DNA of 64,000 bases from Candidatus Enterousia avicola. Lineage in GTDB: Bacteria; Pseudomonadota; Alphaproteobacteria; Rs-D84. The number at the start of each line of letters is the position of its first letter. Position 1 is the stretch's first letter. The stretch spans positions 240 through 64,239 of the forward strand of contig DVNO01000036.1 in assembly GCA_018714345.1 (NCBI GenBank), given 5' to 3'. Below are positions 2,938-13,642 of the stretch, piece after piece. Below the pieces are notes generated by a model that made no database searches, was not told where the DNA came from, and was given only the letters and a program-made list of their open reading frames with translations. Both the position numbers and the translations under genes were made by a program.

Positions 2938-3687
2938 TTACATCACATCAATTATACAACCAAACAACACCGCAAAGAAGAAGCAAACGCTACCGCCTAT
3001 AACAAACAAGTGCCATACAGCATGAGAATACTTCATCCTGCGCCACAGATAGAATATTACGCCCAATGAGTACGACAAGCCACCGGCCAATATAAACCAC
3101 AAGCCTCGTACAGGGATGTTATACAGCATTGCAGGTAATATGAACAATAATGTCCACCCCATAAGAAGATAAAGTGCGACTATCCATTTTGGCTGTTGTT
3201 TTGGATTACGCATTTTCATAATAGAACCAAATATAACAATTGCCCATAAAATGCCAAAAACGGTCCAACCTATCCAACCACGCAAATTTACCAACAAGAA
3301 AGGCGTGTATGTGCCGGCTATTAAGGCATATATAGCCACACTATCCCATACCTCAAAGAAACATTCCCCCTTTTTTCCTATTGTCGCGTGGCACATTGTG
3401 GACCCGAAATAAAGCGTGAACATAGTCAAACCAAATATGGCACAAGAAACTATTGCCCACGGGTCACCCTTCAACGAAGCAAAAACAACTAACAAAGTTA
3501 ATCCGGCAATTGCCAGCCCAATACCGATACCATGCGTTAGTATATTTAACGCCTCTTCAGATTTTGTACTTGGTCTTTCCCAGCGGAATAAACCTGTTGC
3601 ACGAAGTATACGTAGCAAACGACCGCCGCGCGAATCGGATTTAACCGCTTTAAGTTTTTCACGAACAACTTTTTTTGATTTAACCAT
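2938..3687 (-). CDS. hemolysin III / PAQR family 7-TM membrane protein
   Basis: Multi-pass membrane protein with conserved His-containing motifs (HGIGIG...; YSHAVWHLFV) typical of YqfA/Hly-III. Confidence 0.75.
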   Translation of the reverse strand: MVKSKKVVREKLKAVKSDSRGGRLLRILRATGLFRWERPSTKSEEALNILTHGIGIGLAIAGLTLLVVFASLKGDPWAIVSCAIFGLTMFTLYFGSTMCHATIGKKGECFFEVWDSVAIYALIAGTYTPFLLVNLRGWIGWTVFGILWAIVIFGSIMKMRNPKQQPKWIVALYLLMGWTLLFILPAMLYNIPVRGLWFILAGGLSYSLGVIFYLWRRMKYSHAVWHLFVIGGSVCFFFAVLFGCIIDVM

Positions 3688-5260
3688 TGATTACATCCTT
3701 TATACGACTTACAACCTTATCTTGTCCCATAACTTGCATAATAGAATACAAGTCTGGTGTATTTGTGCGACCTGTTAAAGCCACGCGCAAATTCATTGCT
3801 ACTTCACCATTTTTTACGCCTTTATCGGCGGCGATTGCAACAATCTTTGCCCACCAAGAATCTTTATCATCACAAATATCAAATGTTGATAAAAACGCAG
3901 ATAATAAATCTTTATTAAATTCGTAATCTTTATTTGACACAAACAAATCATCCCAGAAGTAAGAAACCTCCTGCAAAGTTTGTTTCCACGTAATAAAATC
4001 CTTGCGAATACGTTTTGGGTTGTCGCGTTCAATAGCCAAAATATTTTTCAAATATTCTGGATCATTACCGATTCGCGCCGCCCATTGCAAATCATATTCA
4101 TCGGCCCAATCACGAACCCGCTTAACCAATTCATCAACTGGCAAGGTAGCGATATATTCTTTCGCCCACCATTCAAGTTTTTTCATATCAAACAAGGCGC
4201 CAGACATAGGTATCTTCTTTGGACGCATTTCGTAATCCCAAATAGATTTTACCTGTCCTTTAGATTTGGCCTCTTCATAACCAGATGCCGCAATATTTCC
4301 AAGGTACTCTAAAACCGCCTCAACTGGCCAACCATCTTGAAGGAAGAAAGCCACATTAGCTTCTGGATCATGGCGTTTTGATAACTTGCGCTGCTTACCA
4401 GTTTCTTCATCAATTTTATCGATTGTAGAGGTATGAATATATAACGGCGGTGTCCAGCCCATCATCCTAAATAATTGAATATGCAGCGGGAACGAAGGCA
4501 ACCACTCTTCCCCACGAACGACATGAGTCGTACGCATAAAGTGGTCATCACACAAGTGTGCAAAATGGTATGTCGGCAGTCCGTCATTTGATTTTATTAA
4601 GACAATATCTTCATTATTTTCTGGGAAACCTATAGAACCACGGACAGCATCTTTACAAAAAATACGATTCGCTGGGTTGCCCATAGAATACAAACGAATC
4701 GATGGCACTTCACCCGCATCCAATCGACGTGTTATTTCTTCTTCTGATATATCTCTATCCCGCGCAAACTCGCCATATATACCAGTTGCAAAACCAGCTG
4801 CCTTTTGATTTTCACGAATTTTATCCATATCTTCCGGCGTCAGAAAACATGGGTACGCCAAACCACGTGCCAACAAATCTGCTGCTACACTGTGATAAAT
4901 ATCTTTACGCTGAGACTGATAATAAGGCCCATATTCTGGAATATCGTTGTATTCCAAACCGAATCTGTGCATAGAATCTTCAATTATCCTGACTGCGTCA
5001 GCAACCTCGCGCTTGGTATCCGTATCTTCTATGCGCAACATAAACACCCCACCAGATTGACGGGCCAATTTACAATCAATAAACGCCTGATATAAGCCAC
5101 CAATATGCATATACCCTGTCGGGCTTGGTGCAAATCGTGTAACAAACGCCCCTTCTGGTAAATTACGTGGAGGATATTTTGCCTCTAACTCTTCCAAAGT
5201 GTATTTTGGTGCTGCACCCAATACACGTGCAATAACCTCTGCTGATAAACCTTTACGCAT
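3680..5260 (-). CDS. gltX: glutamyl-tRNA synthetase
   Basis: Class I HIGH motif RFAPSPTGYMHIGG and KMSKS-like KLSKR. The FAPSPTG signature indicates GluRS rather than GlnRS. There is roughly a 40-aa N-terminal extension upstream of the HIGH motif. Confidence 0.88.
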   Translation of the reverse strand: MRKGLSAEVIARVLGAAPKYTLEELEAKYPPRNLPEGAFVTRFAPSPTGYMHIGGLYQAFIDCKLARQSGGVFMLRIEDTDTKREVADAVRIIEDSMHRFGLEYNDIPEYGPYYQSQRKDIYHSVAADLLARGLAYPCFLTPEDMDKIRENQKAAGFATGIYGEFARDRDISEEEITRRLDAGEVPSIRLYSMGNPANRIFCKDAVRGSIGFPENNEDIVLIKSNDGLPTYHFAHLCDDHFMRTTHVVRGEEWLPSFPLHIQLFRMMGWTPPLYIHTSTIDKIDEETGKQRKLSKRHDPEANVAFFLQDGWPVEAVLEYLGNIAASGYEEAKSKGQVKSIWDYEMRPKKIPMSGALFDMKKLEWWAKEYIATLPVDELVKRVRDWADEYDLQWAARIGNDPEYLKNILAIERDNPKRIRKDFITWKQTLQEVSYFWDDLFVSNKDYEFNKDLLSAFLSTFDICDDKDSWWAKIVAIAADKGVKNGEVAMNLRVALTGRTNTPDLYSIMQVMGQDKVVSRIKDVING

Positions 5261-5813
5261 TTTTATTTTCCTTTTCCCATTCTGACTTTAACTTAGAATA
5301 AGTATACACATCTTTCAACTTATCATAGATCATATAACTCTGACGACGAATGCCCTCACAAACATATCCTGCACGCTTTGCAACATTTTCAGATTTTATA
5401 TTTTCTGTCTCCATAATAATTTCTATTCTGTTCACATCCATATTTTTAAATGCAAAGTCTTCTAACTTTTTAACACAACGCGTCATTATACCACGACCGG
5501 TGTATTTATTTGACAGCCAATACGCAATCTCAGCAATTTTATTTTTTTTAGAACTAATATCAACACCAACGTTTCCAACTATTTTTCCATCGTATATTAT
5601 GTAATAAGACCCATTATCAGTTTGGGAGACTTTATACATATGCATAAACATATCTTCTGGACAGCGAGATTCATCAATCCAGGACAAAAAGCGACGTAAA
5701 GAATCACGCTCGGCATCTACAACATCAAAAATTCTACGCGCATTTTCAAATGTAGGTTCTATTTTCTCTAATGTTATATCGTCAAATTTAATGACCTTGG
5801 GGTATTCTGTCAT
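5253..5813 (-). CDS. GNAT family N-acetyltransferase (RimJ/RimL-like)
   Basis: Acetyl-CoA binding region YWLSNKYTGRGIM...; GNAT fold length of 186 aa. Confidence 0.7.
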   Translation of the reverse strand: MTEYPKVIKFDDITLEKIEPTFENARRIFDVVDAERDSLRRFLSWIDESRCPEDMFMHMYKVSQTDNGSYYIIYDGKIVGNVGVDISSKKNKIAEIAYWLSNKYTGRGIMTRCVKKLEDFAFKNMDVNRIEIIMETENIKSENVAKRAGYVCEGIRRQSYMIYDKLKDVYTYSKLKSEWEKENKNA

Positions 5814-5857
5814 ATTTTAACCTTGTATTCGTATACGCTGAATTTTATACTAATTAT

Positions 5858-6493
5858 ATGGAAAAACAAGAAATAAGAACTTTTGGACGCCGTCACGGCA
5901 AGAAATTATCAGCACGTCAAAATTTATTACTAGAAGCCGTGCTGCCAACCATAAAGCCGGCAAATTTGCCATTAAACACGTCTATGATTTTAGAAATCGG
6001 CTTCGGTTCAGGTGAACATCTACGCGAAATAAGCCGGCAAATGCCGGATAAAATCATAATTGGTGCCGAACCTTTTATGAATGGCGTAGCATCGCTATTA
6101 TCGGCAATCACAGATACAAACAATTCGATTCGTTCTGAATACAAAAATATAAGAATTTTTCCTGATGATGTCCGAGACTTTTTACATAATACCGATTCGA
6201 AATTTGAACAAATATGGGTTCTACATCCTGACCCATGGCCAAAGGCACGCCATGAAAAACGGCGACTTTTAAACGCAGAATTTTTAACGTTATTATCTAA
6301 ACACCTAACCCCAAACGGAGAAATAATAATAGGCACAGATCATTGGGAATACTTTGACTGGATAATAGAACAAGTAAAACATACCACGCTTACGGCAACT
6401 ATACCAGACCTGGCAACCATACACACCCGCTATCAAGAAAAAAATAAAGCCGGCACAACATCACCAAAGTACATGGTTCTTACAAATAGTTGA
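5858..6493 (+). CDS. trmB: tRNA (guanine46-N7)-methyltransferase
   Basis: SAM-binding EIGFGSGEH motif and TrmB-like length and architecture. Confidence 0.85.
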   Translation: MEKQEIRTFGRRHGKKLSARQNLLLEAVLPTIKPANLPLNTSMILEIGFGSGEHLREISRQMPDKIIIGAEPFMNGVASLLSAITDTNNSIRSEYKNIRIFPDDVRDFLHNTDSKFEQIWVLHPDPWPKARHEKRRLLNAEFLTLLSKHLTPNGEIIIGTDHWEYFDWIIEQVKHTTLTATIPDLATIHTRYQEKNKAGTTSPKYMVLTNS

Positions 6494-7148
6494 TAAAAAA
6501 TTTAACTTTCTGCGATAAATCAGGCCTAATTGCTTGAAACAAGCGTGCAGTTTGCTCTATACGATTACCGTTGTTACCCAAAAGAAAATGAAATTCGAAA
6601 TCATCTTCGGGCGTCAAAGCGTTCAGCGCAGCATAAACCCTGCCTACGTAATCAGAATTATCACCTTCATCTTTTGGTAAAACCAACAATAATCCACTTG
6701 CCCGCATTTTTTTTAATGCATCAAATAAGTGTTGCCATTCAAAAGGCCCTAGTTCATTTATATCAATACCAAAAAATAGAGACTTATTAAAAAACAAATC
6801 ATCTCTTATCAAATATAATTGAGAAACAAACGCATCTATATCTCGCATAGCGACAAAGACCTGTGCACCATCTGCCCCATTTTTAAATGCTTGGTTTATT
6901 TTAGCGGACAAAAAGGAAATTTGGTCTGAGTCTTGACCCTTTAAGTAAAATCGTGAGAAAATTTTGACCTGTTTTCCTTCCAACCAGGGCCACACGATAG
7001 AAACAGAATCTGTTCCAACAGACATATATGGGATTCGCTTTTCTATAGCAACCGAAGCAGCCTGAGCCAAATCAGTTGGTTCAATTCCAGCCGAGCACCA
7101 TATTGCCGCCTCACTAATATTATCAAGAATGTTATCCGGACTTATCAT
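6480..7148 (-). CDS. hypothetical protein
   Basis: 222-aa ORF with no recognisable motif. It sits divergent to the 7182 cassette. Confidence 0.45.
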   Translation of the reverse strand: MISPDNILDNISEAAIWCSAGIEPTDLAQAASVAIEKRIPYMSVGTDSVSIVWPWLEGKQVKIFSRFYLKGQDSDQISFLSAKINQAFKNGADGAQVFVAMRDIDAFVSQLYLIRDDLFFNKSLFFGIDINELGPFEWQHLFDALKKMRASGLLLVLPKDEGDNSDYVGRVYAALNALTPEDDFEFHFLLGNNGNRIEQTARLFQAIRPDLSQKVKFFINYL

Positions 7149-7181
7149 TGCTCTTTTTACTTTATCACAAAATATGATATA

Positions 7182-8150
7182 ATGAAAATCAATATGAGAA
7201 TACGCTTAGACAATGTATTACTGTGCATATTATGGATCCTAGCGGTAACACTGGGCGCATGTTTTTGGTTTAATACAGTATTTGGTTTCAATATATTTTC
7301 TGGCGAACATTGGGAATATGTCGCATCCTTGCAGGCGACCAAAGCACCGATTAAAACTACATTTTACGTTTCAATGGCAATCACGATATTTGTAGCTATT
7401 CTGGGCTTATACATGGTAGTCAGACCAAGTATGAGGAAAATTCGACTGCCCATAATAAAAAAATCTAATCACACAAATGATATAAAAACGCAAAAAGTCC
7501 AAGACGCTACAACTACACAAAGCATCAAACCAGATACAGATGCATCCACATTAGATATTATCTCTGAGGGTGCACAACAAGGCATAGCCGCCTCCCCTCG
7601 TCCACAGGGACCATCTGCGTCTGCAAGGCCACCCAGACTTGTGCTGCCCAAAATAAACAATACCGGCGCATTTCAACAACCCTCATCTCAACTGTCACCA
7701 ATAGCACAACCAAGAAATACTGGGCCAACTGATGAAGACGTAAAAAAGCTAGAAGAAATTTTCACAAACGCTGGCTATGCAGTAAAAAAGAACGCACGCG
7801 TAAACGGCATAATGACCGCATTAATTGCGATTGGTTCTAACGAGACAATGTGGCTTGGCTGCGTTGGTGTGCCAACAACTAAAGTAAGGGAAATAATAGA
7901 AAAATTTGAACAGATTTTTTCTGACACCTTAGACGAAACAGAAATAAATATAAATGGTTTTACCATTTCTGCGCCGGATGAAAGCACATCAGAATTTGAA
8001 GACATTCTTATGTTTAAAACAATTGAAGACTTGCAAGCATATATGCAAGACAAACAAAATCCTCTTCCGGAAGACGACGAAGATAGGGAAATGTTTGACG
8101 CCTACTCTCAATACATAGACGCAGTAATAACGCACATAGGATTGATTTAA
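7182..8150 (+). CDS. membrane-anchored hypothetical protein with P/S/Q-rich low-complexity linker and acidic C-terminal domain
   Basis: Two N-terminal TM helices, then a roughly 100-aa disordered P/S/T/Q-rich segment (ASPRPQGPSASARPPRL...SSQLSPIAQPRNTGPT), then a globular C-terminal domain. Because a TGnTATAAT element overlaps 7182, the true start may be the ATG at 7194. Confidence 0.55.
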   Translation: MKINMRIRLDNVLLCILWILAVTLGACFWFNTVFGFNIFSGEHWEYVASLQATKAPIKTTFYVSMAITIFVAILGLYMVVRPSMRKIRLPIIKKSNHTNDIKTQKVQDATTTQSIKPDTDASTLDIISEGAQQGIAASPRPQGPSASARPPRLVLPKINNTGAFQQPSSQLSPIAQPRNTGPTDEDVKKLEEIFTNAGYAVKKNARVNGIMTALIAIGSNETMWLGCVGVPTTKVREIIEKFEQIFSDTLDETEININGFTISAPDESTSEFEDILMFKTIEDLQAYMQDKQNPLPEDDEDREMFDAYSQYIDAVITHIGLI

Positions 8151-8659
8151 TGCAACTAACTAAAGAAATTGCAGAAAAAAAATTATCAGACATGAATATG
8201 AGAGACATGCCGATAATGGACTATCACCCTATTCCGGCAATGGTTGCACCTGATTGGTTTAAAAAATATAAAAAACTGTGTCATGAATTTATAATATCTT
8301 TAACAGATTCAATAGAACAACTTGCTTTTATGAACCTATCACAAGACGAGTTTATGGCGTTAATTACGGGTCGCAAGATACCACAGAATCTTTCAATCAG
8401 ATTTCGTGTACCACTTATATGGGGCGGCAAACTAGAAATAGATAATATGTTCATGTGCTGGACGTTTCCAAACTCTCAAAACTTGGATAGGTTTATACAA
8501 GATCAAAATGATGCGAACATCGTATGGTTACCAAATCCCGCCACAAAAATTTATGTACCTGGTCATAATCTGAGTGGTGGTGATGGTGGAAACGCAACAG
8601 AAGACAGGCTTAGCCAAATGGCAGCACAAATAGCAGCATCGCGCGGAATGGAACAATAA
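8150..8659 (+). CDS. hypothetical protein (169 aa), translationally coupled to upstream gene
   Basis: Its start ATG overlaps the upstream TAA (TAATG). It contains a Gly-rich SGGDGGNATEDR segment. No confident family assignment. Confidence 0.5.
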   Translation: MQLTKEIAEKKLSDMNMRDMPIMDYHPIPAMVAPDWFKKYKKLCHEFIISLTDSIEQLAFMNLSQDEFMALITGRKIPQNLSIRFRVPLIWGGKLEIDNMFMCWTFPNSQNLDRFIQDQNDANIVWLPNPATKIYVPGHNLSGGDGGNATEDRLSQMAAQIAASRGMEQ

Positions 8660-8667
8660 AGGCAGAA

Positions 8668-9102
8668 ATGAATTGCAATGAATTTATATCTTTAATGAAA
8701 TCCCATGGTGCAAAATTTGCACCAGCAGCATCTATGCCTTCGATAACATTAGCTAACACAACGTTGCAAAATATTCGCGCTGCAATGCTACCAAAATCCA
8801 TTACAGATTTATATATGCAATGCAGCGCCTTGAACCTTGGGAATGGCTATATATTTGGCCCGACAGAGATAAAACGTGGAAACAAATATCCAATTCCAAG
8901 TATAATTGACATAAACACAAAGCTATCCGGCTGTCCGAGTTTACTTGGTAAAACCGTCTTTGGTAGGAACGATTTGTTTTGGTTTGCTTTTGATTCCTTT
9001 GGAACATATTTCATGTTAGATAACGTGACATTAAAACAGCTGCGAAAGTACGAGGACCCTTATAAAGCAATGTCGGACTGTTTAATTGCTGGGAACATAT
9101 AA
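8668..9102 (+). CDS. putative SUKH (SMI1/KNR4)-like immunity-family protein
   Basis: The N-terminal pattern ...LPKSITDLYMQCSALNLGNGYIF and the C-terminal LFWFAFDSFGTYFMLD resemble the SMI1_KNR4/SUKH-1 signature (LP..Y..FL...NGG ... D..G...L.D). The call rests on my motif reading alone. Confidence 0.45.
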   Translation: MNCNEFISLMKSHGAKFAPAASMPSITLANTTLQNIRAAMLPKSITDLYMQCSALNLGNGYIFGPTEIKRGNKYPIPSIIDINTKLSGCPSLLGKTVFGRNDLFWFAFDSFGTYFMLDNVTLKQLRKYEDPYKAMSDCLIAGNI

Positions 9103-9310
9103 AATGAAAAAATTATCCGTATCTTTATCTGGTCACCAAACAAGCATATCACTAGAGAAAGAATTTATTGATGCCTTGCACGAAATATCTTTAAAAGAGA
9201 ACAAATCTATTGCTTCTATAATAGAACACATAGACGACAACCGTGCCCCTGATTCAAACCTATCATCTGCGATAAGGGTTTGGATTTTTAAAAGATATTA
9301 TAAAGCATAA
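9086..9310 (+). CDS. ribbon-helix-helix (RHH_4) domain protein
   Basis: GHQTSISLEKEFIDAL...NLSSAIRVWIF matches the RHH_4 pattern (r.TSvsLE.eFw.aL...nLSSAiRvfvl). It overlaps the upstream gene by 17 nt. Confidence 0.6.
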   Translation: MLGTYKMKKLSVSLSGHQTSISLEKEFIDALHEISLKENKSIASIIEHIDDNRAPDSNLSSAIRVWIFKRYYKA

Positions 9311-9313
9311 TTT

Positions 9314-11326
9314 TTAATCACGCTTTTCTAACGTAGCCAAGAGAATCGTGCACATACAAGAAAATAGCAATATAATAATCATCATACCATCACGACCAAT
9401 TTCTCGATATATTGTACTATGCGCACCGTAAAGGCTTCCATCCATATATCCCTGCTCTGCAACTGGTATTTCTGAAACGACATTGCCATCTGACAATATG
9501 AAAGCGCTAATACCGGAATAATTTGCCCTAACAATTGGCAACCCCGATTCGATTGCGTATCTGCGCACCATGTCCAAATGTTGATAAGTTCCTGGGGTAT
9601 TTCCAAACCAAGTATCATTAGTAATATTTATTATTGCGTCAGGTTTTTCTGCATTTGGAACCAGTGAATCAGAAAAAATTATTTCATAACAAATGGCCGG
9701 CGCAAAACTAAAAACCTTACCATTAATATCAATCGTTATTATTTCTGCCCCATTTCCTTTTGATAATTGACCAGGCGTAGGAATGATGTCACCAAACGGT
9801 CTGTATTCGCCAAACGGAACCAAATGAGACTTACTATAAACTGTCTGAATTGCTCCACCTGGGGTGGCCACAACCATAGAGTTATATAAACTTCCATTCA
9901 TATATGACGTAGCCCCTATGACAACATTATTGTTCAACGCAGCGGCTATTGGCATATCATCACCTTTCAACACAACAAATGGATAGGCTGTTTCTGGAAA
10001 CACAATTAAATCTGGATTACCTGGTCCCTTTGCTAATTCTATAAGAGTATTAACATTATCTGTCGCATTACGAATCGCTTCTTCTCTTGAATGAGTCGCT
10101 TTTTGTTCTGCACTAAGCGCGGGCTGCACAATGCGTATTGTCTGGGTATAATTGTCACTATTATTTGCCTCTGTAATATTTCTATACCCATACAAGGTCC
10201 CAATTCCAGCAAGGGTCAAGAATAATACGAAAGCACCCCAAGAATACTTATTTCTTTTATTCAAAATAAGTTCAACAATAATGGCAATCAAACCAACTAA
10301 AACGAACGTTGTTCCCAAAGCCCCCCAAAGCGCCATGGAATTTGCAAGAATTGGAAACGGCATCAAAATATTAGCCAACGGGTTCCAAGGAAATCCAGTT
10401 AGCAACCACTCGCGCAACCACAAAACAAAAGTCCATACCGCAGCAAACAAAAATGCTCTACATGCTGGTTTTGTGCGTATACAAGAAATTGAAACAAACG
10501 GAATTGAAAAAATTATTCCACCTAATATTCCGATTCCAATAATCGCAGGTATTGTCCAAACTGCAAATTGTTCTGCCAGTTCTGGTACAACAAATATAGA
10601 ATTAACGACCCACCAAAACATAGCTATTGAATAAACCGCACTAAATGGGAAAACGCGTAAGAAGACTTTAAAAACACCTGCCCCAGAAATATTACGAACA
10701 ACTATGGCATAGGCAAACGCTATAGCTATTAAAGTTGCCCACCATAAATGAGTTGGCGCAAAACCTAAGGCAGCCACACCGCCAAGGACTGCCATTATTA
10801 AATACTGTCCAAACCCATTCGGTTTAAATTTTATTCGTTTAAAAAAGGAATAAATTTTGCTGCCTGGACAACATGAAAAATCGCTGCATACGCCTAAATC
10901 CTGCACATAGGGATTTTTTATTCCCATAGAATTTAATATTTCTGTCTCTTTTTTTTCCATTATTTCTGCTTCACTATCTTTTATATGATCATAACCTTGA
11001 AGATGTAACATTCCATGGACAACCATATGAGCAACATGATCCTTAACAGAAATATTTTCTTTTTTTGCTTCTTTCACAATTGTATCTAAGGATATATAAA
11101 TATCACCTAATAAAATATCATCACCCAGTTCGAAAGACAGAACATTTGTGGGCCTATCTATATTACGATACTTTCGATTTATTTCATGAATCTCCTCATC
11201 ATTGGTAAGAGTAATCGAGACCTCTGCTTCCGGTCCTGCATAAACAACCGCAGCATTGGCTATTTTATTAAAATCAATCTTATACTTACGCCAACGTTCA
11301 TCGTTGTAATTTATACATACTTTCAT
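9314..11326 (-). CDS. in-frame fusion of endoribonuclease YbeY and apolipoprotein N-acyltransferase Lnt
   Basis: The ATG at 11326 (MKVCINYN...) lies 14 nt after the upstream stop. The YbeY zinc motif HMVVHGMLHLQGYDH sits at about residues 100-115 of this CDS. Lnt TM helices and a CN-hydrolase domain follow with no stop codon in between. The ORF track extends to 11464, but that stretch overlaps the upstream gene. Confidence 0.8.
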   Translation of the reverse strand: MKVCINYNDERWRKYKIDFNKIANAAVVYAGPEAEVSITLTNDEEIHEINRKYRNIDRPTNVLSFELGDDILLGDIYISLDTIVKEAKKENISVKDHVAHMVVHGMLHLQGYDHIKDSEAEIMEKKETEILNSMGIKNPYVQDLGVCSDFSCCPGSKIYSFFKRIKFKPNGFGQYLIMAVLGGVAALGFAPTHLWWATLIAIAFAYAIVVRNISGAGVFKVFLRVFPFSAVYSIAMFWWVVNSIFVVPELAEQFAVWTIPAIIGIGILGGIIFSIPFVSISCIRTKPACRAFLFAAVWTFVLWLREWLLTGFPWNPLANILMPFPILANSMALWGALGTTFVLVGLIAIIVELILNKRNKYSWGAFVLFLTLAGIGTLYGYRNITEANNSDNYTQTIRIVQPALSAEQKATHSREEAIRNATDNVNTLIELAKGPGNPDLIVFPETAYPFVVLKGDDMPIAAALNNNVVIGATSYMNGSLYNSMVVATPGGAIQTVYSKSHLVPFGEYRPFGDIIPTPGQLSKGNGAEIITIDINGKVFSFAPAICYEIIFSDSLVPNAEKPDAIINITNDTWFGNTPGTYQHLDMVRRYAIESGLPIVRANYSGISAFILSDGNVVSEIPVAEQGYMDGSLYGAHSTIYREIGRDGMMIIILLFSCMCTILLATLEKRD

Positions 11327-11339
11327 AACGAAACCTATT

Positions 11340-13277
11340 TTATGCAATATTTTCTTTTTCCACTGTACCGCGCCGCCTAATCTTAAAAGCCTTGCTTTTT
11401 CCATTGACACGTTTAGCCGCCTCAACAAAATTTTGCCCTTTCTGGCGAAGCAATTTGTTGACACGTTTTATATCTTTTTTTACCCCTATATTCCCGTTAC
11501 GCACAGATAGCTTATAGTTCTTCAAAGCACGTTCTAGATCGCCAATTTGTTCGTACGCAAATCCAGCATTATACTGAGCCGCGGCATATTGACTTTTATC
11601 TCCTATTCTAGTCAAAATTTCGCGCGCACATTTTATTGCTTTTTCATACAATCCAAGATTGTTGTATGTGGCGGCTAAATCATTATGTAACAACGCATTA
11701 TCCGGGAAGCTTTTTAACATATTTTCCAACTGAGCCGCTGCACTTTTATAATCTTTTTTAGAATATGCCAGCATAGCATTTTCATATAAATCATCATATC
11801 CTATGGTATAAGTTTTCACAGTAGATATTTTTTCAGTTTTTGCATAATAATCTACAAAATCATTATTACCTAGTACACATTTACCACTTTGGCAAAGCAA
11901 TAAAGCATCGTCCGGTAAATAATCAGAAACCTTTTTCCAATTTTTTAGACTTTTCCCTTTCTTGTCCCTTGGATTTTTTAACCATTCCTTAAATACCTTG
12001 TACGTTTTTTTATTAACACGTGGTCCCGAAACATCACTTTCAAAAAAAGCACTTTTTTCTTTTCCCATAAGAGAAAAAAATTCATACATACCATTTATAG
12101 GACAATTTAATAACATTTGTGGTGTTATATCTCCCGTCATCAACCCAGCTTCTAACCAGCGCCGCCAATACATTCCCTTTCCTCCGGCCAAAAAACCACC
12201 CAATTTATTAGCGACCTCATTTTTATCGGAACCACTAAGCCAAGCTTCTCCGAAACTTCTTGGTTTTCGTACAGGATAAACATCAAAACACTGTTTCACT
12301 AAAGAATCTGGAAGTGCATAACCGTACTCCTTATAAAGCTTACGTAATTTATCAAATCTATTTTTATGATTAGAGTCTTTCGGGGCTTCTATCAATTTAG
12401 AATATGCATTATATACAACAGACCCTATACCCAAGGCTTCGCTAGTTGTTTCTATGTGAACATTATCTTGAGACACATCATAACAATAAAGAACAAAAAA
12501 TGTTTCATTTTCTAAATGCCAACGCGCAAGCTCATATGCCTCTTCATCTGTTATTGGTGGTGTACTCATAGTAACTTTTGTACCATCTTTCAAAACAGTT
12601 GAACCAAAGCCTATTGTTGGAATTCCCTTTGAGTCACGATATGGAGTATGCATGCCGTTTTCATTAATGTGTACCCCCTCTTTTACTATTAAATCGGCTA
12701 TCAAAACAGGTGTTATAGGTTTTATTCTTTCTAAGAATGCTTTATAAGTACCACTAAATGCTTTTTTTTCTTCGCTGTCCAGTTTCCATTCTTTATAATC
12801 ATGCTCTATTTCTTGTTCATATTTAGCAGTTACATAGCCAGCCCCAGATACAGCAGTTAAACCCAATAACCACAAAATATGAGCAGATAAATTAGGATAC
12901 TTTTTTGCAAACGAAGATACTTTTTTGGGTTTACCTTTTTTGTTTTTACCAACAGTCATATCAGAAAAATTTTTTTCCATTTTACGCAGGAAAGCATTAT
13001 CCATAGTCAACCAACGCGCTAAAGTTAATAAAAACTGTGCACCACCAGCAGCCAACCACGCAGACCACTTAACTGCCCCCAAACCAAAAATACCGGCAGC
13101 GTCCATAAACTTTGCATTTTTATCTTTTATCCCAGCGGATTCTCTCTTTTGCCGTCTTTCTTTTATAGTTTTTACGACTTCCTTTTTCTCTATAAATTTA
13201 CGTAATTTTTTTGCAAGCTCTTCGGGAACAGCAACATTCTTTCTAAACTTTTCTGACATAGTAATTTGCTCCTTCAC
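11340..13277 (-). CDS. membrane-anchored GH24 (phage-type) lysozyme-domain protein with C-terminal TPR repeats
   Basis: Two hydrophobic segments near the N-terminus. The GH24 signature KEGVHINENGMHTPYRDSKGIPTIGFGST matches (EG...Y.D..G.pTIGxG). TPR-like repeats sit at the C-terminus (YNNLGLYEKAIKCAREIL..., AQYNAGFAYEQIGDLERALKNY). Confidence 0.7.
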   Translation of the reverse strand: MKEQITMSEKFRKNVAVPEELAKKLRKFIEKKEVVKTIKERRQKRESAGIKDKNAKFMDAAGIFGLGAVKWSAWLAAGGAQFLLTLARWLTMDNAFLRKMEKNFSDMTVGKNKKGKPKKVSSFAKKYPNLSAHILWLLGLTAVSGAGYVTAKYEQEIEHDYKEWKLDSEEKKAFSGTYKAFLERIKPITPVLIADLIVKEGVHINENGMHTPYRDSKGIPTIGFGSTVLKDGTKVTMSTPPITDEEAYELARWHLENETFFVLYCYDVSQDNVHIETTSEALGIGSVVYNAYSKLIEAPKDSNHKNRFDKLRKLYKEYGYALPDSLVKQCFDVYPVRKPRSFGEAWLSGSDKNEVANKLGGFLAGGKGMYWRRWLEAGLMTGDITPQMLLNCPINGMYEFFSLMGKEKSAFFESDVSGPRVNKKTYKVFKEWLKNPRDKKGKSLKNWKKVSDYLPDDALLLCQSGKCVLGNNDFVDYYAKTEKISTVKTYTIGYDDLYENAMLAYSKKDYKSAAAQLENMLKSFPDNALLHNDLAATYNNLGLYEKAIKCAREILTRIGDKSQYAAAQYNAGFAYEQIGDLERALKNYKLSVRNGNIGVKKDIKRVNKLLRQKGQNFVEAAKRVNGKSKAFKIRRRGTVEKENIA

Positions 13278-13642
13278 TTATTCTTCCCAAGCCCGGTTTT
13301 CTTAGCTATTTTTGAACGTTTTTCTGAATAGCCAGGTGCAACTAACGGGTAATTATCTGGCAACCCCCATTTTTTTCGATATTGTTGCGGGGTCATGTTA
13401 AATTTTCGTTTTATATAACGTCTCAACATTACATGCCACGTACCGTCTTCTAAACACTGAATCTTATCTTGCTTTATTGAATCCGCAATTTGTTGTTTTG
13501 ACACAGATGCGCCACGCAGACTTTCACGTGCGGCGTGAACAGCATCCTCCATTGATAAGGCAGGATTAGCCGCAATAGCCGCTGCAGCCAAATTAGCTAC
13601 AGCCAATGCAAATTCTGCAGAATCTTTATTTATACTTACCAA
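13274..13642 (-). CDS. MucR/Ros-family transcriptional regulator with degenerate zinc site
   Basis: IQCLEDGTWHVMLRRYIKRKFNMTPQQYRKKWGLPDNYPLVAPGY aligns to the Ros box [43 protein letters not shown]. Only the first Cys ligand is retained. Confidence 0.8.
   Translation of the reverse strand: MVSINKDSAEFALAVANLAAAAIAANPALSMEDAVHAARESLRGASVSKQQIADSIKQDKIQCLEDGTWHVMLRRYIKRKFNMTPQQYRKKWGLPDNYPLVAPGYSEKRSKIAKKTGLGKNK

Follow-up and report, generated by a model that had tools for sequence, protein, structure and literature searches.

How do a ribosome-maturation nuclease and a lipoprotein-modifying membrane enzyme come to occupy a single reading frame? The question is raised by a gene in contig DVNO01000036.1 of Candidatus Enterousia avicola (GenBank assembly GCA_018714345.1), of which a stretch of 64,000 nucleotides (positions 240 to 64,239 of the forward strand, hereafter the window) was analyzed. 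On the minus strand of this window, between positions 11326 and 9314, a sequence resembling YbeY runs directly into one resembling Lnt. YbeY is a zinc-dependent endoribonuclease that acts in 16S rRNA 3′-end maturation and ribosome quality control, and Lnt is the apolipoprotein N-acyltransferase, whose active site lies on the periplasmic side. The initial annotation of the locus offered three explanations: a genuine bifunctional fusion, a ybeY that lost its stop codon while Lnt is translated from an internal start, and a sequencing indel. We conclude from sequence comparison that this is a real chromosomal gene of a Candidatus Enterousia-like alphaproteobacterium and that it probably encodes one polypeptide with two enzymes.

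The minus-strand frame is open without a stop from 11464 to the TAA at 9316-9314, as seen in both the list of open reading frames (ORFs) and the sequence itself. Within it, the coding sequence (9314..11326, minus strand) comprises 670 codons plus the TAA (9314-9316) and was delimited from the ORF list, the sequence, and the starts of homologues. A GTG further upstream, at 11464, falls within the preceding gene, which ends at 11340. Because all homologues begin at the equivalent MKV and the preceding gene ends 13 nt upstream, the ATG at 11326 is assigned as the start of the fusion. The uninterrupted 670-residue frame claimed by the initial annotation is thus confirmed, and the two strings quoted in support of it, HMVVHGMLHLQGYDH and NPYVQDLGVCSDFSCCPGSKIYSFFKRIKFKPNGFG, are present in the sequence.

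Pfam recognizes three domains in the encoded protein, namely YbeY (residues 16-133, E value 6.9e-38), LNT_N (182-345), and CN_hydrolase (426-626). The match to PF02130 reaches 129.9 bits (cutoff 25) and covers profile positions 8-128 of 129, and the two Lnt domains score 62.5 bits (PF20154) and 78.9 bits (PF00795). Both enzymes also exceed the cutoffs of their NCBIfam equivalog models, with 137.1 bits against 45 for YbeY (TIGR00043) and 234.5 bits against 132.9 for lnt (TIGR00546). In alignments to PDB sequences, the YbeY part reaches within 2-3 residues of the C-terminus of 1XAX and 1XM5, and the rest of the protein aligns to Lnt from the first transmembrane (TM) helix on. Both modules are therefore complete, and the roughly 30 residues between them (141-171) belong to neither. 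The junction peptides read ...NPYVQDLGVCSDFSCCPGSK and IYSFFK.

The YbeY endoribonuclease domain (residues 1-140, ending ...GIKNPY; 10907..11326, on the minus strand like all features of the gene) was bounded by PF02130, TIGR00043, the 1XAX/1XM5 alignment, and Foldseek. Its expected length of about 140 residues and its H3xH5xH site are borne out: the zinc-binding motif H104-GML-H108-LQGYD-H114 (H-x3-H-x5-H) lies at 10985..11017. The inter-domain linker (residues 141-171, 31 residues, VQDLGVCSDFSCCPGSKIYSFFKRIKFKPNG; 10814..10906) was recognized by low model confidence and low identity, and it carries a Cys-rich motif, C147-SDFS-C152-C153-P-G155 (10862..10888), that is conserved among close fused homologues. 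It is followed by the Lnt membrane domain (LNT_N, residues 172-390; 10157..10813), assigned by PF20154, the structural model, and Foldseek, with seven predicted TM helices, and by the periplasmic CN-hydrolase domain of nitrilase fold (391-640; 9407..10156), assigned by PF00795 and TIGR00546. The chain ends in an eighth TM helix (641-670; 9317..9406), which corresponds to model helix 645-669 and aligns to the C-terminal helix of E. coli Lnt. The claim of a full-length Lnt with a CN-hydrolase domain and 6-7 TM helices accordingly holds for completeness, and the helix count is refined by the model to seven plus one at the C-terminus.

The catalytic residues of both halves were located by alignment and by conservation across 53 fused homologues (mean column identity 67%). 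H104, H108, and H114, the YbeY zinc ligands, are invariant, as are many other YbeY positions and the Lnt triad E445 (9992-9994), K499 (9830-9832), and C546 (9689-9691). The three Lnt residues align to E267, K335, and C387 of what we take to be the E. coli Lnt sequence, in which positions 267, 335, and 387 are E, K, and C. This matches the triad numbering E267/K335/C387 given for the E. coli enzyme (PMC6971011).

Conservation is unevenly spread along the chain. Mean pairwise identity among the 53 homologues is 0.70 in YbeY, 0.39 in the linker, 0.58 in the Lnt membrane domain, and 0.65 in the CN-hydrolase domain, which makes YbeY the most conserved segment of the fused protein. These values bear on an alternative in which the YbeY moiety is an inactive relic that survives as a mere cytoplasmic N-terminal domain of Lnt, the YbeY function being supplied elsewhere or lost. 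Some room for it is left by a nested subgroup of relatives that has lnt without an adjacent ybeY, and by a search for further ybeY genes that covered the window and flanks of 4-6 kb. A decaying relic, however, would not be expected to be the most constrained segment (mean pairwise identity 0.70, with Lnt at 0.58-0.65), to keep its zinc ligands and many other positions invariant, or to score 137 bits against an equivalog cutoff of 45. We regard the relic explanation as very improbable; judging from the sequence, the fused protein appears to keep both enzyme activities.

An AlphaFold2 model built from 53 homologues (mean predicted local distance difference test score, pLDDT, 80.7; predicted TM-score, pTM, 0.70) places TM helices at residues 172-186, 195-211, 218-244, 248-282, 287-310, 331-355, and 360-387, and a last one at 645-669. 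This order, with seven TM helices, the nitrilase domain, and then an eighth TM helix, matches the Lnt architecture of the structures retrieved by Foldseek. With target-normalized TM-scores, the Lnt part superimposes on the E. coli structures 5N6H and 5VRG at 0.77-0.79 over about 520 aligned columns, and the YbeY part on 1XM5 at 0.78 (40% identity), 1OZ9 at 0.82, and 7Y7O at 0.76. Confidence is low in the linker (pLDDT 44-61 over residues 141-170), predicted as a flexible segment that contains a short amphipathic helix at residues 156-164 ahead of TM1. Because seven TM helices precede the periplasmic nitrilase domain, the N-terminus of TM1, and hence YbeY, should be cytoplasmic. The model thus suggests an orientation in which YbeY would sit in the cytoplasm and the Lnt active site in the periplasm.

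Comparison with stand-alone structures clarifies what the fusion adds. The stand-alone Lnt proteins of E. coli and P. aeruginosa (5N6H, 5VRG, 5N6M) share the eight-TM domain, the periplasmic nitrilase, and the E-K-C triad, but these structures start about 10 residues before TM1, whereas the fusion is extended N-terminally by about 170 residues of YbeY and linker. Stand-alone YbeY (1XM5 from E. coli, 1XAX from H. influenzae, 7Y7O from S. aureus) has the same H-x3-H-x5-H site, and the match to 1XAX and 1XM5 is full-length. Unlike in these proteins, the C-terminus of the fused YbeY is not free and runs into the linker and a membrane protein. The reported partners of YbeY are uS11, Era, Der, YbeZ, and SpoT (PMC5101352). 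They would have to reach the fused YbeY at the membrane, since the domain would be tethered there through its C-terminus.

If the continuous frame were a sequencing or assembly indel, with ybeY and lnt in truth separate genes, it should not recur in related genomes. A stop codon between the halves was therefore sought in relatives. The best 120 matches to the whole protein are all fused, at 58-99% identity and 650-686 residues, with the same three Pfam domains. Ranking by the whole protein favors fused proteins and could hide unfused kin, so the Lnt part alone was used as a second query; 117 of the 120 nearest Lnt clusters were again fused. The fused architecture occurs in >117 protein clusters at 57-99% identity from independent assemblies. 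An identical 670-residue protein is present on two independent contigs, and the 90% cluster of the window protein has 59 members from ENA, Logan, and NCBI assemblies. Further afield, seven GTDB species representatives (L001-L007) are fused, with identity to the window protein down to 39%, and about eight fused representative clusters at 50% identity were found among 1.84 billion proteins. The distance from the YbeY end to the GFAP motif of TM1 takes nine lengths (32-52 residues) in 116 close homologues, always in frame.

The three unfused clusters among the 120 are themselves broken versions. One protein, P0363, is truncated by a contig end, its frame being open from the first base. P0417, found in two Logan assemblies (L086 and L087, around 540-560), has a 1-nt frameshift right after CCPG that yields overlapping ORFs for ybeY (164 residues) and lnt (524 residues). 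P0418 (L085, around 3000-3040) has lost about 70 nt between TTGGCATTG direct repeats, and with them TM1 of Lnt, in a locus otherwise syntenic with the window. The cases in L085, L086, and L087 may be either real alleles or assembly errors, and they indicate that indels do occur in the junction region, in nature or in assemblies. Rare broken versions in close kin are what an indel explanation could call on. Set against the identical protein on independent contigs, the 59-member cluster, the 117 fused Lnt clusters, the seven species representatives, and a frame kept through nine linker lengths, they leave its probability close to nil, and an assembly artefact was rejected on the strength of the same fusion in independent assemblies. 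The fusion is instead clade-wide, and the catalytic residues of both halves are invariant, in line with the first of the three explanations.

A continuous frame could still be read in two parts. In this alternative the ybeY stop was simply lost, Lnt is made mainly from an internal start such as M178 or V141, and the long chain is minor or incidental. The start candidates originally named as V187, V192, and M224 had been counted from the GTG at 11464; they correspond to V141 (GTG), V146 (GTA, which is no start codon), and M178 (ATG). The presence of this ATG and GTG in the junction speaks for independent initiation, as does the lnt ORF of L086/L087, which begins at its own ATG inside the linker and makes such initiation at least possible. 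The comparative data do not follow suit. No start codon is conserved in the junction of the fused homologues, where M178 is often replaced by L, F, Y, or I, and a start there would truncate TM1. In the sheep-rumen relative L002, the stretch from the YbeY end to the GFAP motif of TM1 is devoid of ATG, GTG, and TTG codons. Nor is any in-frame ATG, GTG, or TTG in the junction preceded by a Shine-Dalgarno-like motif, either in the window gene or in seven fused relatives, which is weak evidence because by eye none is obvious at the assigned start at 11326 either. Sigma-70-like promoter sites are not enriched (19 found against 16.8 ± 4.1 expected), so neither an internal start nor an internal promoter rose above chance in these scans. 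Finally, the frame is kept through a length-variable linker in all copies, which opposes independent translation of Lnt, because such translation would leave no selection for the frame. An internal Lnt start as the main source of the enzyme is thus quite unlikely, and translation as one chain is the better-fitting account.

How the fusion arose can be read from the arrangements in other Alphaproteobacteria. One genome per GTDB species was scanned with conserved Lnt peptides, and YbeY and Lnt were then placed by hidden Markov models (HMMs) of the fused family. Eighty loci were recovered, 69 with detectable ybeY. In 58 loci, ybeY and lnt are separated by 850-1800 nt occupied by CorC (CBS + CorC_HlyC), and PhoH, picked up by an HMM made from these ORFs, lies upstream. 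In four (L008, L016, L046, L059), ybeY and lnt are adjacent without corC and PhoH is still upstream; seven (L001-L007) are fused; and 11 have no ybeY within the flank and are uninformative on arrangement. The premise that ybeY, corC, and lnt usually follow one another is therefore upheld by 58 of the 69 loci, and for E. coli by the described ybeZ-ybeY-ybeX(corC)-lnt operon (bioRxiv 10.1101/2023.03.20.533420). Relative to this operon and to the alphaproteobacterial miaB-phoH-ybeY-corC-lnt cluster, the fused locus has the same two enzymes in the same order and orientation with the same catalytic residues, but it lacks corC, phoH, and the ybeY stop, and a 31-residue linker joins the enzymes. The absence of corC noted in the initial annotation holds up: the corC HMM, built from the intervening ORFs of relatives, has no match in the window or in the flanks of the fused loci.

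The adjacent loci show how small the last step could be. In L008, the junction reads ...NPYQE-stop-R-M-LVKLK..., the lnt ATG following the ybeY stop in frame at a distance of 3 nt; since a single in-frame stop separates the genes, one stop-to-sense change would recreate a fusion. Readthrough or recoding of this stop in L008 and L016 was considered and ruled out, as in L046 and L059 the two genes do not share a frame and every lnt starts at an ATG of its own. At the distant fused loci L006 and L007, miaB lies directly upstream, so phoH was lost there too. A neighbor-joining tree of the Lnt domain (100 bootstraps) gathers the fused proteins in one clade (97/100) and places the four adjacent-unfused loci in a separate gut/rumen clade together with the corC-containing L021 and L043 (100/100). 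Because that clade mixes loci that kept and lost corC, with phoH kept among the latter, corC seems to have been lost repeatedly from the cluster. A fused protein outside the fused clade, P0142, suggests an independent fusion. Two contigs deposited as Muribaculaceae bacterium and Lachnospiraceae bacterium (P0073, 308,746 nt; L008) carry alphaproteobacterial ybeY and lnt and are probably mis-binned or from mislabelled metagenome-assembled genomes (MAGs).

These comparisons suggest a path in which corC would have been deleted from an ancestral miaB-phoH-ybeY-corC-lnt cluster, phoH lost, and the ybeY stop codon then lost to give YbeY-Lnt. The product would hold YbeY at the cytoplasmic face of the inner membrane through a flexible linker of about 30 residues, while the Lnt active site of the same polypeptide would work on the periplasmic side. 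The most likely account, then, is a single polypeptide whose two autonomous enzymes face either side of the inner membrane and which arose by deletion of the intervening genes and the stop during genome reduction. The fusion appears to be mainly a by-product of genome compaction rather than evidence of a new coupled function.

Several observations weigh against this account. Nested within the fused clade is a subgroup (P0133, P0136-P0139; bootstrap 98/100) that consists of Lnt alone; upstream of lnt on the contigs of P0133 and of P0324, a relative of it, lies a gene other than ybeY, and no ybeY was found in the flanks. The nesting points to a later separation of lnt from ybeY; together with the frameshifted relative seen in two assemblies, it indicates that the fusion is dispensable in some kin and that physical linkage is tolerated and not required. 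A scan of metagenome contigs with stand-alone Lnt P0133 gave a single match, at 26% identity, and was uninformative. The AlphaFold support consists of pLDDT and pTM (0.70). The search for additional ybeY or lnt, corC, and phoH genes spanned the 64-kb window and 4-6 kb flanks, and such genes may lie elsewhere in the genome. The single-chain state is likewise deduced from sequence, and linker cleavage or minor internal initiation is possible. Lastly, a purely neutral fusion leaves a conserved Cys motif in the linker unaccounted for.

This motif, C-x-D-x-x-C-C-P-G, belongs to the linkers of the Enterousia-like subclade. Of 116 close fused homologues, 105 have CPG and 82 have CCPG, and C153, P154, and G155 are each ≥90% conserved. 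L002 carries a longer, metallothionein-like version (around 6420-6500), CNCGCGGKCNCVDCKCKNCSCCNCPG, and the distant fused proteins L004, L006, and L007 lack the motif. The motif might provide juxtamembrane metal binding or a site of S-acylation. It could also serve as a recognition element for a protease, which leads to the alternative that the fusion is made and then cut in its flexible linker, giving soluble YbeY and membrane-bound Lnt, with equal co-expression as its purpose. The predicted disorder of the linker (pLDDT 44-61) would suit such processing, as would the soluble or ribosomal nature of the YbeY partners uS11, Era, Der, and YbeZ (PMC5101352). Against it, the linkers of L004, L006, L007, P0122, P0126, and P0128 are short (about 10-25 residues from the YbeY end to the TM1 hydrophobic stretch) and share no motif, so that a conserved cleavage site would hardly fit, and no protease-site-like conservation extends across the whole fused clade. 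Cleavage therefore seems unlikely. A more ambitious proposal sees in the fusion a real functional connection, at the inner membrane, between the biogenesis of lipoproteins and the envelope and the maturation or quality control of the small ribosomal subunit. The Cys motif could then be a functional element, binding metal or carrying a lipid, through which the tethered zinc RNase is regulated or anchored. We give this proposal a slim chance; if true, it would go some way to account for the shared operon of ybeY and lnt across Proteobacteria. The uncleaved fusion of two autonomous enzymes is the account we retain.

Cys-rich sequence was also met elsewhere, as a separate gene. In two MAGs labelled Rickettsiales with stand-alone lnt (L082 and L084) and no ybeY in the flanks, a secreted Cys-rich protein without a Pfam match is encoded upstream of lnt, directly in L082 (1102-1626) and one gene further up in L084 (726-1490). 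L082 additionally has a Cas9 gene (5195-8080) about 2 kb downstream of lnt.

The neighborhood of the fused gene differs from that of the canonical cluster. Directly upstream on the minus strand (11340-13277) lies a gene for a 645-residue protein with a weak phage-lysozyme match (residues 209-257) and C-terminal TPR repeats, where phoH/ybeZ would be expected; with a gap of 13 nt to the fusion start, the two genes are probably co-transcribed. A MucR/Ros regulator gene (13274-13642) is directly upstream of the TPR gene. On the other side, a convergent plus-strand gene for a 74-residue RHH_4 (ribbon-helix-helix) protein (9086-9310) ends 3 nt from the fusion stop codon, and no terminator-like site was found between them, which speaks for extreme compaction of the locus. 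The order MgsA-MucR-TPR-YbeY::Lnt-RHH_4 is kept in L085. When all frames of the 64-kb window were searched with HMMs built from relatives, none of these, the PhoH model included, turned up corC, phoH, or another copy of ybeY or lnt. An Rfam scan of the window returned one tRNA only and no rRNA. Four consecutive ORFs at 6480-9102 (222, 322, 169, and 144 residues) have no Pfam match, and the last three, or all four, are syntenic in L085. In another Candidatus Enterousia sp. MAG (L005), an extra ORF just downstream of the fused gene (8014-8304) matches Lnt profile positions 128-203 only and may be a partial duplication or an assembly repeat.

The tight packing is in keeping with what is reported of the organism. 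Enterousia and other members of the order Rs-D84 are uncultured gut Alphaproteobacteria with genomes mostly <1 Mb and about 90% coding density, for which a partner-dependent lifestyle has been proposed (PMC12306168). A locus in which the RHH_4 gene ends 3 nt from the fusion stop fits such a reduced genome.

The fusion is already catalogued in databases, and no study or description of it was found in the literature. Among the members of the 90% cluster is UniRef100_A0A9D1SMD8 / HIU65794.1 of Candidatus Enterousia avicola, which has the same three-domain architecture and is essentially the same gene; at 696 residues against 670 here, an upstream start was presumably chosen. UniProt gives it the generic, uncurated name "Multifunctional fusion protein", and NCBI names it "apolipoprotein N-acyltransferase". 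Since NCBI labels such fusions only by the latter name, YbeY may be counted as missing from these genomes in surveys that go by product names. What is new here is thus the fused domain architecture of two well-known enzymes, flagged by automatic annotation.

Few bacterial proteins are as conserved as YbeY; how exactly it acts is still debated, and the long-standing operon link of ybeY with corC and lnt lacks an explanation. A clade that has stably anchored YbeY to the inner membrane by way of Lnt, and whose locus lacks both phoH/ybeZ and corC, amounts to a natural experiment: if both activities are retained, YbeY can function while held at the membrane, even when no gene for YbeZ or CorC lies next to it. 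The same locus offers an example of stepwise gene fusion during genome reduction, from a three-gene cluster through neighbors separated by a stop codon to a fusion, with occasional reversal.

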